Shown here: piece by piece, positions 3-5,823 of the stretch
Numbering within the stretch: position 1 is the stretch's first letter
Layout: the number at the start of each line of letters is the position of its first letter
Source: Deltaproteobacteria bacterium TL4
GTDB taxonomy: Bacteria; SAR324; NAC60-12
NCBI GenBank assembly: GCA_051382335.1
Contig: JBBCAX010000069.1
Span: forward strand, 1 to 25,492
DNA length: 25,492 nt
Direction: 5' to 3'
Notes under the pieces: model-generated
What the model was told of the DNA's origin: nothing
What the model saw: the letters and a program-made list of their open reading frames with translations, nothing else
Databases searched by the model: none
Program-made: the position numbers and the translations under genes

Positions 3-854
3 GGCGGATTAGGCCCCGGAGGCGTTGCGGGAACCGTGGGTGCCGCGGTGGTTGTGCTGGGCGTCCTCTCTGAGCAGGGAAAAGACGAGGGAGGCGATAG
101 CGGTGACAGTGGTTCCTCTGCGTCCTCAACCCCTCCCACAGGAAGCGTCTTAGCCGCAGTGGATGCTGATGGCATGGTTCACCTTTCAGGGGGAACGTTT
201 CAAATGGGAAGTACCACTGGAGACAGTGATGAAACCCCAGTACATAGCGTCACTTTGAGCAGTTTTTACATTTCAGAGGCAGAAGTAACCGCAGGGGAAT
301 ACAAAGCATGTGTTGATGCGGGAGGGTGTACCGCCGCGGGTTCAGGAAGTTATGCTACCTACAAGGTCTCCGGCCAGGAAAATAATCCTATTAATTATGT
401 GAGTTGGGATGACGCGCAAAGTTACATCACGTGGCTTAATCAAAGCTCAAGCAGGAGTTATCGTCTTTGTAGCGAAGCGGAGTGGGAGTATGCGGCAAGA
501 GCTGGGACGACGACGGCTTGGTCCTGCGGAGATAGTGAGTCCTGTTTGAGTAATGTCGCTTGGTATAGCGCAAATAATTCGCCTGATGGGACGAAAGCCG
601 TGAAAACCAAGACAGCAAATGCCTGGGGATTATATGACATGCATGGAAATGTTTGGGAATGGGTTAATGATTGGTATGGCTCTTATAGCAGCGGCAGTGT
701 AACGAATCCTACTGGTCCTGCTTCTGGCTCCAACCGTGTGGGTCGTGGCGGCGGCTTCGGCGACGACGGCGGCTTGCGGTCGGCCGATCGCAACTACGAT
801 TCGCCGGGCGGTCGCTACAGCATCCTCGGTTTCCGCCTGTGTTCCAGTTTGTGA
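3..854 (+). CDS. FGE-sulfatase (SUMF1/CLec-fold) domain protein, 5'-partial; candidate DGR target
   Basis: Motifs FQMGS, ETPVHSVTL, PINYVSWDDAQ, YRLCSEAEWEYAAR, NAWGLYDMHGNVWEW, RGG...RSADR...GFRL. The frame stays open back to position 3 (GGLGPGGVAGTVGAAVVVLGVL, hydrophobic, then a Gly/Ser linker), so the true start lies upstream of the window. Confidence 0.92.
   Translation, partial: GGLGPGGVAGTVGAAVVVLGVLSEQGKDEGGDSGDSGSSASSTPPTGSVLAAVDADGMVHLSGGTFQMGSTTGDSDETPVHSVTLSSFYISEAEVTAGEYKACVDAGGCTAAGSGSYATYKVSGQENNPINYVSWDDAQSYITWLNQSSSRSYRLCSEAEWEYAARAGTTTAWSCGDSESCLSNVAWYSANNSPDGTKAVKTKTANAWGLYDMHGNVWEWVNDWYGSYSSGSVTNPTGPASGSNRVGRGGGFGDDGGLRSADRNYDSPGGRYSILGFRLCSSL
729..839 (+). other. Putative DGR variable region (VR)
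   Basis: Abrupt GC-rich tail. None of the 41 codons from 729 to 851 ends in A, and non-conserved positions are NNC/NNT codons (ggt, ggc, gac, gac, gat, aac, tac, gat, ggt, tac, agc, atc), compatible with A-mutated AAY template codons. Confidence 0.6.
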
Positions 855-930
855 CCCTTGGCGCTTTTACCCTTTTACCCTTGGAAAAACAGGGACTTGA
901 AAAGGTTTTGATGAGCAGAACAGGTCAATA

Positions 931-1062
931 ATAGGTCTGACGCAGTTCAGACCTAATTAGACCTGATTTTAGGTCTAATGGTAGTAGGAGTCAAGAAGTG
1001 ACTGATTTAGGCCTGATTTAGGCCTGAAATTGTATAGAAATCAGGTCTATTTTCAGGCCTGA
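931..1062. repeat. Array of eight 10-bp pseudo-palindromes, consensus TYAGRYCTRA
   Basis: Copies at 931 ATAGGTCTGA, 947 TCAGACCTAA, 957 TTAGACCTGA, 969 TTAGGTCTAA, 1007 and 1018 TTAGGCCTGA, 1041 TCAGGTCTAT, 1053 TCAGGCCTGA. Confidence 0.8.
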
Positions 1063-1066
1063 TTTC

Positions 1067-1115
1067 AATACACGTGCATGAAATCAGGTTTGTAGTCCCG
1101 CCTTTAGGCGGAAAG
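1067..1115 (+). repeat. Left half of a GTAG-type REP/REPIN element (interrupted)
   Basis: AATACACGTGCATGAAATC...GTAGTCCCGCCTTTAGGCGGAAAG closely matches 5403-5451. Hairpin CCGCC-TTTA-GGCGG at 1098-1111. Confidence 0.8.
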
Positions 1116-1203
1116 GTGTGCCTGACATGGCACGAATCCAGGAGGTAGAAGTCCTCTCACCGCCCTGTTAGGAGGGAAGGTGTAGCCGAAACCAAGGGTG
1201 TCG
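1116..1203 (+). mobile_element. 5' fragment (domain I) of a group IIC intron
   Basis: Begins GTGTGCCTGACATGG (GUGYG 5' consensus), contains GGAGGTAGAAGTCCTC and TAGCCGAAACCAAGGGTGTC, which resemble IIC domain I as I recall it from the O. iheyensis intron (GUGUGCCCGGCAUGG...UAGCCUAACGCAAGGGUGUC). It lies 4 nt after a hairpin. No RT ORF or domain V follows. Confidence 0.72.
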
Positions 1204-1285
1204 GAAGAAACTCAACTATGGAATGAGAATTAAATAACTTTCCCATTTGCTCTGGCCCTTGATTTTACCGGGATTTCACGATGGA

Positions 1286-1342
1286 GTAGGAGTGCAAAAG
1301 CTTGCTTTTGCCCAACTCAGGTCCTTTCTGGCAAAAGCAAGC
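1286..1342. repeat. Truncated GTAG-type REPIN
   Basis: GTAG-GAGT-GCAAAAGC-TT-GCTTTTGC hairpin, plus a 13-bp inverted repeat GCTTGCTTTTGCC (1300-1312) / GGCAAAAGCAAGC (1330-1342). The right arm breaks off at 1342. Confidence 0.65.
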
Positions 1343-1675: not shown

Positions 1676-1723
1676 CTCGTCCAGGTAGCTCTCCGAGAAT
1701 ATAGTGCTCAAGATAAGTTTTGT

Positions 1724-1779
1724 CCTGGGAGCGAGGGCGTCCCGCCCTCCGGTGAGGGCAAGATGCCCTCGCTCCCAGG
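1724..1779. repeat. REP-like inverted repeat
   Basis: CCTGGGAGCGAGGGC...GCCCTCGCTCCCAGG 15-bp IR with internal GAGGGC/GCCCTC hairpins. Confidence 0.8.
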
Positions 1780-1809
1780 GAAAAAACTTTCCTGGACAGC
1801 TATACATAA

Positions 1810-5345: not shown

Positions 5346-5423
5346 TTGGAACCGGCTTATTTAACTTTGATACGCTTCCACAAGCTCTCATGGCATTAGG
5401 GTAATACCCGTGCATGAAATCCT

Positions 5424-5488
5424 GTTCGTAGTTCCGCCTTTAGGCGGTAAGCCTTGCAGAAAAGCCGCCTAAAGACGGAACTACGAAC
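5424..5488. repeat. Intact GTAG-type REPIN (same family as 1067-1115)
   Basis: GTTCGTAGTTCCGCCTTTAGGCGG ... CCGCCTAAAGACGGAACTACGAAC. Confidence 0.85.
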
Positions 5489-5572
5489 TTTTCACAATGA
5501 CTTCAGAAAAACTCGCTATAATTTTATAAGTAGCTGTAATTAAAATACTTATTATTATTTTCCAAATTTCAT

Positions 5573-5823
5573 TCACGGATATTGGGCATTAGGGTACTGT
5601 CGCTCAGGATCATAATTATCAGCAAGGTCTTTTAGTGCGTTTTGTACACCATCTACAAGAGGATTATCGGCTATAGTCATCGTTTCGCCAATGTCCCTTC
5701 GACTTCGCTCAGGGAACGCACTCGGAGGCTGAGCGGAGTCGAAGCCGGATTTCAAAGATAGCTGCCTTTTGGCGAAACGATGACTATAGCCGGATTATCT
5801 TTGAAGAAATAGTTGTTTTCCAT
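5573..5823 (-). pseudogene. Small 45-aa ORF interrupted by a MITE
   Basis: Removing the 113-bp insertion (one CTATAG kept) gives MENNYFFKDNPAIADNPLVDGVQNALKDLADNYDPERQYPNAQYP*, with GAGGA 8 nt before the ATG. Confidence 0.5.
5671..5789. mobile_element. MITE with perfect terminal IRs and an internal hairpin repeat
   Basis: CTATAGTCATCGTTTCGCCAA (5671-5691) / TTGGCGAAACGATGACTATAG (5769-5789). Inside: CTTCGACTTCGCTCAG...CTGAGCGGAGTCGAAG. Confidence 0.8.

Follow-up and report, generated by a model that had tools for sequence, protein, structure and literature searches.

Bacterial group II introns are credited with three target specificities, namely homing sites, terminators and attC sites (2015 review, PMC4424553). 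As characterized by Toor et al. 2006 (PMC1702495), class C introns carry a CGC triad, a domain V shortened by 2 bp and an AGGAA epsilon-prime motif, and lie behind terminators "or other inverted repeats". According to Leon et al. 2010 (PMC3001079), IIC introns lie after palindromic sequences, and Miura 2022 (PMC8919778) counts hairpins without a U tail as terminators. Because of these three statements, hairpin targeting in general must be considered as already known. The nearest individual systems are the class C introns B.h.I1 (Toor et al. 2006) and GsI-IIC (PDB 6ar1), together with IIC-attC intron S.ma.I2, which Leon et al. describe as targeting the attC bottom strand. Variety g6 is described as lying outside monophyletic class C, with a similar RNA, and is often found near hairpins (PMC4244168 and PMC8919778). 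On the side of the target, IS elements are known to target REPs (PMC1525189), and the REP/REPIN-RAYT systems are characterized by a GTAG foot, an imperfect palindrome, inverted doublets and arrays flanking a Y1 transposase (PMC3116915 and PMC6006769). In the literature searched, no title or abstract dealt with REP-targeting group II introns, a result on which subscription papers and supplements may bear, and the accessible portions of PMC2936281 and bioRxiv 10.64898/2026.09.22.753630 make no link between group II introns and REPs.

We analyzed a stretch of 25,492 nucleotides of Deltaproteobacteria bacterium TL4 (hereafter the window), which is contig C69 of an assembly of 6.6 Mb in 445 contigs. 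Positions 1116-1215 are the dead 5′ end of a group II intron belonging to a sister lineage of class C, and this intron is likely to have entered a REP doublet by retrohoming with a four-base EBS1 and a one-base EBS3, the target being hairpin-forming single-stranded DNA. The features on which the analysis is based are as follows.

886..1066, plus strand: upstream flank common to the filled copy on C365 (blastn 96.5%) and to the empty allele on C226 (95.5%)
1067..1084, plus strand: left terminal inverted repeat of a MITE-like element of ~180 nt carrying a REP doublet; 59 matches
1092..1111, plus strand: REP arm of family A, with a GTAG foot and a 5-bp GC hairpin (1098-1102 with 1107-1111); 73 arm matches in the genome
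1112..1115, plus strand: terminal AAAG of the 5′ exon, a candidate IBS1; 3 of 4 Watson-Crick pairs with EBS1 read as CTTG
1116..1215, plus strand: 5′ end left over from a class C-like group II intron of family W; 96 of 100 positions identical to C120:1581-1680
1220..1342, plus strand: left part of another MITE-like element, after the break point, inserted at or next to TA; terminal repeat with 43 matches
1709..1794, plus strand: empty family B (GGAG) REP doublet; 1773/1774 is the position filled by the sister intron family S on four other contigs
5403..5583, plus strand: MITE-like element without an intron, whose family A REP doublet (subfamily A2) is complete; REP arms at 5428-5447 and 5465-5484, terminal repeat on the right side at 5566-5583

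The stub comprises 100 nt rather than the ~88 nt given in the preliminary description, and its BLAST match runs on to 1218. It holds the GUGYG start and the first stems of domain I, in which 10 of the 16 consensus pairs show compensatory changes (alignment of 16 sequences). EBS1, the RT and domains II to VI are all missing; the stub can therefore neither splice nor move by itself and is inert. Searching the window against Rfam gave no group II match, and the two matches at E<=1 were both miRNA models on the hairpin at 5403. The longer copy on C120, 96% identical to the stub, did match RF02001 at 70.9 bits (gathering 32) and runs on into an RT (TIGR04416, 327.8 bits for a cut-off of 300); RF02001, RF00029 and TIGR04416 were all found on copies 94-96% identical to the stub. 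A BLAST search of the genome with an 88-nt part of the stub returned five near-identical copies including the window (94-100%) and four distant ones. Of the checks proposed at the outset, the covariance models gave a group II match on C120 and none on the window itself, and BLASTN led to an RT-bearing copy on C120. No complete family W copy was found in this assembly: C120 is cut by the contig end, C237 contains a MITE and part of the interior of C431 is deleted.

The 49-nt repeat at 1067-1115 is 88% identical to 5403-5451 and then diverges, as had been described. In the copy at 5403 a second arm follows, the two arms being 24 nt long and 96% complementary, and the element folds as a long hairpin (z -7.2), while the copy at 1067 switches to GTGTGCC at 1116, four bases behind the REP arm 1092-1111. 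Family A is an imperfect palindrome with inverted doublets, of which 26 are empty and fall into two subfamilies, A1 (15 copies) and A2 (11 copies, including 5403). On C302 and C414 its arm is found beside genes for Y1 transposases; the C302 protein matches NF047646, a REP-associated tyrosine transposase, by a narrow pass (80.4 bits for a cut-off of 80). The arms of family B likewise flank a Y1 domain on C336. These data support the identification of the hairpin ahead of the stub as a RAYT-associated REP, with the GTAG foot, imperfect palindrome, inverted doublets and Y1-flanking arrays of the described REP/REPIN systems. In contrast to the REP-targeting IS elements, the invader here is a retroelement, and the doublets are carried in MITE-like elements with their own terminal repeats, which may move them. 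The type of end found at 1067..1084 occurs both on short elements that carry REPs and on longer unrelated interiors.

Several additional observations concern the surroundings. REP doublets of several families lie inside MITE-like elements with own terminal repeats (5403-5583, 1709-1794, 1220-1342), and one MITE-like end also occurs on longer elements, possibly autonomous IS. The same intergenic regions are densely occupied by additional inverted-repeat elements from other families (1810-1898, 1963-2097, 5668-5792). At the start of the window (3-854) lies a gene with an FGE-sulfatase domain, the 3′ end of which (721-855) differs from C156 by mismatches located at A positions in 19 of 20 cases, with similar sequences on C58 and C208; such A-biased mismatches are the pattern of a diversity-generating retroelement target. 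A gene fragment that contains EKG-type repeats of 12 nt and matches DUF4351 weakly occupies 1343-1675, and on C365 a similar piece is located upstream of the intron stub instead.

The C120 RT has the GsI-IIC RT as its best solved relative (277 bits, versus 138 for LtrA) and shows the Pfam domains RVT_1 and GIIM only, without an endonuclease domain; full-length proteins of its clade have 424-442 amino acids as trimmed. We scanned GTDB with this RT, covering 22 of 64 parts, and retained the best 80 of 537 loci. Among these 80, the clade loci (L062-L104) share 55-65% RT identity with C120 and have full lengths of 2024-2056 nt, while the control loci (L105-L141) share 49-53%, carry the CGC triad and measure 1863-1952 nt. 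Within the same 80 loci, every one of the 34 clade loci that include a domain V had an AGC triad, as do the four family W 3′ ends, and the motif FADD occurred in 40 of 43 clade RTs versus 1 of 37 controls, 36 of which have YADD. A careful tree was then computed from 45 chosen rows (15 clade, 20 class C and 10 other RTs, these outgroups being without an assigned named class and the g2 and g6 references lying outside the set). All 15 sampled AGC rows formed one branch (support 100/99). Its sister group, at 98/92, comprised the 20 class C rows, two integron-associated references among them, and both together were separated from the 10 other rows at 100/100.

Domain V spans 30 nt in 31 of the 34 clade loci and in 26 of the 32 controls, compared with 34 nt in two outgroups, and the d region has the canonical length; domain I is ~50 nt longer than in class C, through one stem. 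The epsilon-prime region, placed according to our own reading of Toor et al. 2006, is GGAAG in 22 of 33 clade loci and AGAAG in 8, including family W. For EBS2/IBS2, a weak test over 33 loci revealed no excess complementarity between exon positions -5 to -20 and either the domain I insert or the rest of domain Id. The clade shares with B.h.I1 and GsI-IIC an RF02001 domain I, a short domain V, an EBS1 of 3-4 bp, an EBS3, the lack of an EBS2 signal, an RT with GIIM and without endonuclease, and intergenic hairpin targets, but differs by AGC in place of CGC, by FADD, by the longer domain I and by a varied EBS1. On sequence grounds the lineage appears to work like IIC introns yet lacks the CGC triad, and we therefore file it as a sister variant of class C proper rather than as a plain member; of the initial reading as a IIC intron fragment, the intron remnant stands and the class is amended. 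The IIC-attC introns (Leon et al.) offer a parallel, being a class C lineage specialised on a non-terminator hairpin of another mobile-DNA system, but the integron-associated RTs nest inside the CGC branch, apart from the clade. The g6 row of Desulfotalea (2093 nt, domain V-VI span of 84 nt) differs in these lengths from the clade (2024-2056 nt, ~70 nt). The table of Miura 2022 (PMC8919778) files 2023-nt Methylomonas introns under C; because this is the length of the Methylomonas-type members of the clade, the clade has probably already been collected under C uncommented, an argument from length only. The clade domain V pattern gave 0 matches in viral sequences, and a search of 60 other genomes with the intron 5′ part found a relative in one, G009, where it lies at a hairpin resembling an IS200/605 end by eye.

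Within the TL4 genome, family W shows three 5′ events, one in family A on C69 and two in the GGAG-type family B on C120 and C431. The sister family S, 70% identical to W, has four 5′ ends, all in family B, where 178 matches to the second arm were found, 135 continuing as CCCAGG and 4 into the intron; its 3′ junctions restore an uninterrupted REP doublet exactly in 3 of 3 cases. Altogether, 9 of 9 clade 5′ ends (7 events) are located at family A or B arms, versus 0 of 37 for the co-resident attC-type family, and these arms plus 35 nt make up 0.19% of the genome. Family W has four 3′ junctions, of which the one on C405 is in an array of tandem GGAG repeats, that on C133 in an RT gene, that on C237 in gene-like DNA and that on C431 in an IS200-like end; none of the four continues a family A or B doublet, and three are not in REPs. 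The high-copy attC-type family carries the CGC triad and groups with integron-associated introns, 23 of its 37 sites ending in TTGT.

Some copies merit separate mention. Four attC-type copies are found directly behind domain VI of another intron, as tandems (5′ ends of the family e.g. C177:103, C152:167, C217:476, C400:1514). Both REP-inserted families have ORF-less derivatives that keep domains I, V and VI (C103:28864-29523, 660 nt; C431:321-942, 622 nt). A further family W 3′ end, at C133:37632, directly adjoins an RT frame that lies close to a sequence resembling a template repeat; the intron may have been inserted in the RT gene of a DGR.

The targets were further evaluated across genomes. 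The site table holds 94 clade sites from 35 genomes and 25 control sites, after addition of 80 fetched regions, removal of near-duplicates and of exons shorter than 25 nt, and the collapse of three family S sites into one row. The counts are descriptive and not a test, because only surviving insertions are seen and related introns are not independent of each other. A T-tract is present at 2 of the 94 clade sites versus 19 of 25 controls (background 4.8%). As the initial reading supposed, relatives were located in repeats of the REP type, both in TL4 and in other phyla, rather than behind ordinary terminators. Of the 94 clade sites, 48 bear a crude REP signature, as do 9 of the 25 controls (background 13%); in 20 of 35 genomes no fewer than half of the sites bear it. 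A perfect GC hairpin ending within 15 nt upstream occurs at 33 of 94 clade sites and 16 of 25 controls (background 9.5%), and the median z of the hairpin signal is -1.3 at clade sites versus -6.2 at controls. Many clade insertions are situated inside the hairpin stem or loop and not a few bases behind it, so that the insertion distance first described, correct here with four bases, does not hold throughout the lineage; this position and the scarcity of T-tracts distinguish the clade from terminator-type class C introns.

Individual genomes vary. All three sites in G070 are at the foot of GTAG/GTAA hairpins, in a repeat with 7 matches (control 0); most of the 11 sites in G088 are REP-like, their repeat family having 11 copies (control 0), one of them near a Y1 transposase; the repeat families at clade sites of G075 and G065 give 24 copies (control 0) and 178 matches (control 3), respectively. 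The position within the repeat is fixed in G070, G065 and family S. Targets are mixed in G089, G063 and G078, with a REP signature at 1 of 8 scored sites in G089 and another site there in an apparent other RT gene. A general GTAG pattern exceeds its control in some genomes only and is uninformative in GC-rich ones, and a pattern designed for G071 gave 0 matches in G071. By eye, one clade intron (L086:1826) lies inside an apparent attC top strand, a Bacteroidales intron of the control group with a CGC triad (L112:1919) lies in a REP-like inverted repeat, and the 5′ exons at L080:1827 and L069:885 resemble the reverse complement of domain VI of another intron. In the TL4 genome every clade 5′ end is at a REP of family A or B; with about half of the clade sites overall bearing the signature, the use of REPs supposed in the initial idea is a preference and not a rule.

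Two readings of this preference were considered. We tentatively propose, from sequence comparisons, that a widespread sister lineage (AGC, FADD, extended domain I) may be specialised on the single-stranded hairpins of HUH/Y1 systems, chiefly REP/REPIN, through recognition by the RT and a 4+1 guide retuned in each host. It is possible, if rather unlikely, that no REP-specific recognition exists and that a 4+1 base match with local single-stranded DNA structure suffices; The predominance of REPs would then reflect that no harmless extragenic hairpin is commoner in these hosts and that insertions in genes are purged. Such relaxed opportunism would account for the mixed targets of G089, G078 and G063, for the weak hairpin signal, and for the attC-like site, the antisense intron ends and the IS200-like ends seen by eye among the targets, and it suits the "other inverted repeats" of Toor et al. 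Terminators, however, are harmless hairpins too and yet only 2 of 94 sites have a T-tract; in one genome 9 of 9 clade ends and 0 of 37 attC-type ends are at REPs; and the position in the repeat is fixed in three cases. These points separate the two readings incompletely, because a GC-rich EBS1 alone would exclude T-tracts. It is likely that such repeats are the main landing pads of the lineage, which is almost never found behind terminators.

The guides covary with their targets. Over 31 distinct EBS1/IBS1 pairs, counted from the alignment with three interrupted loci and five stubs excluded, 95 of 124 positions are Watson-Crick pairs (null 37.4 +/- 5.2, maximum 62), with 26 different EBS1 sequences among the 31. 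For EBS3 and IBS3, the first 3′ base, 21 Watson-Crick and 5 GU pairs account for 26 of 28 (Watson-Crick null 8.5). Read in the alignment register, EBS1 of family W is GCTT, which pairs 4/4 at the C431 junction and 2/4 with the candidate IBS1 AAAG of the window, AAAG being the sole case of the 31 in which the first EBS1 base is unpaired. Moved one base on, the register CTTG fits AAAG 3/4 and TAAG 4/4 counting wobble, and EBS3 then pairs with C, the next base in empty family B and A2 sites. The pairing suggested earlier for AAAG and TAAG is thus plausible, and the predicted homing position in the element at 5403 would be 5451/5452.

The copy at 5403 had been taken as the empty site. It is indeed empty, but as a member of the sister subfamily A2, while the filled copy at 1067 belongs to A1, and it was ruled out as the exact empty allele; the flank-matched allele is C226:1-291, 95.5% identical to window 824-1114. 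The junction-bearing copies on C69, C183 and C365 have their upstream flank in common (~230 nt in the case of C365; on C183 the whole 96 nt present, which include just the last 47 bases of 886..1066). As they share junction and flank we count them as one event, or partly an assembly effect, and rejected a count of three insertions. The point at which the stub breaks off contains TA in all of them; the MITE-like element that comes next is the same on C69 and C183 and a different one on C365.

One base of the junction deserves attention. The G ahead of the intron is absent from all 15 empty A1 copies, the C226 allele included, and is native to family B sites, where 56 arms are followed by AAAAGC, as well as to the C120 junction. 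Since it is missing from A1, the 1115/1116 junction may be recombinant: a family B intron copy (AAAAG, then intron) would have been joined to an A1 doublet by recombination or end-joining over the A run of 3-4 bases, and the junction would not be a homing product. The region also consists of elements nested in one another, and in the C431 copy the 5′ flank does not match the 3′ flank. We nevertheless judge this origin improbable, as a single A-to-G change, or the AAG of A2, would give the same junction, the position agrees with the site predicted from EBS1 (CTTG) and EBS3, and the intron begins exactly at its own first base. Family W would either use two registers, which the loop sequence would allow, or have borrowed the junction from a family B copy; recombination at 1116 would leave the lineage-level result untouched.

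That an ordinary terminator-type IIC intron adjoins the repeat by chance is hardly credible: although its first 32 nt are common to canonical IIC introns and a metagenome pattern scan gave 24 loci, 18 with a T-tract, these loci have a short domain I (ending at 255-256 in 14 of 14 where found) and their 5′ segment scores 10-30 bits on the clade profile versus 78-82 for window-type stubs, no terminator-like site lies at 800-1400, junction included, and the 96%-identical copy has its RT in the AGC clade; tree placement and the same-genome counts refute it. The 24 loci were accordingly set aside as canonical short-domain-I introns and not this lineage, and a terminator at the junction was likewise rejected.

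Retrohoming into the REP doublet, the reading we retain, might have proceeded as follows. Mohr et al. 2018 is reportedly the source for class C reverse splicing at the fork with a stem-loop replacing EBS2. By analogy, the intron would have entered single-stranded DNA at the fork by class C-style reverse splicing (PMC4424553 and PMC8919778), and the REP stem-loop would substitute for EBS2. The site table suggests that the lineage may have traded terminators for REP/REPIN and similar extragenic hairpins, a move that GC-rich guides could have helped, and that EBS1 may have been retuned to the repeats of each host. To judge from the copies, TA-targeting MITE-like elements would have landed ~100 nt into the intron after its insertion; the rest of the intron would then have been lost and the stub duplicated together with its flank.

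A REP-using sister lineage with an ancestral-type AGC triad bears on the evolution of hairpin recognition and of the IIC ribozyme. Its naturally varied guides are ready substrates to separate recognition by base pairs from recognition of the stem-loop, and intact multi-copy members of the clade exist in named methanotrophs. Such a lineage also links retroelements to REP/RAYT turnover. If the proposed specialisation is true, it would add REPs and similar hairpins to the three recognized target specificities as a fourth, and the intron would ride the spread of REPINs and of the MITEs that carry them.
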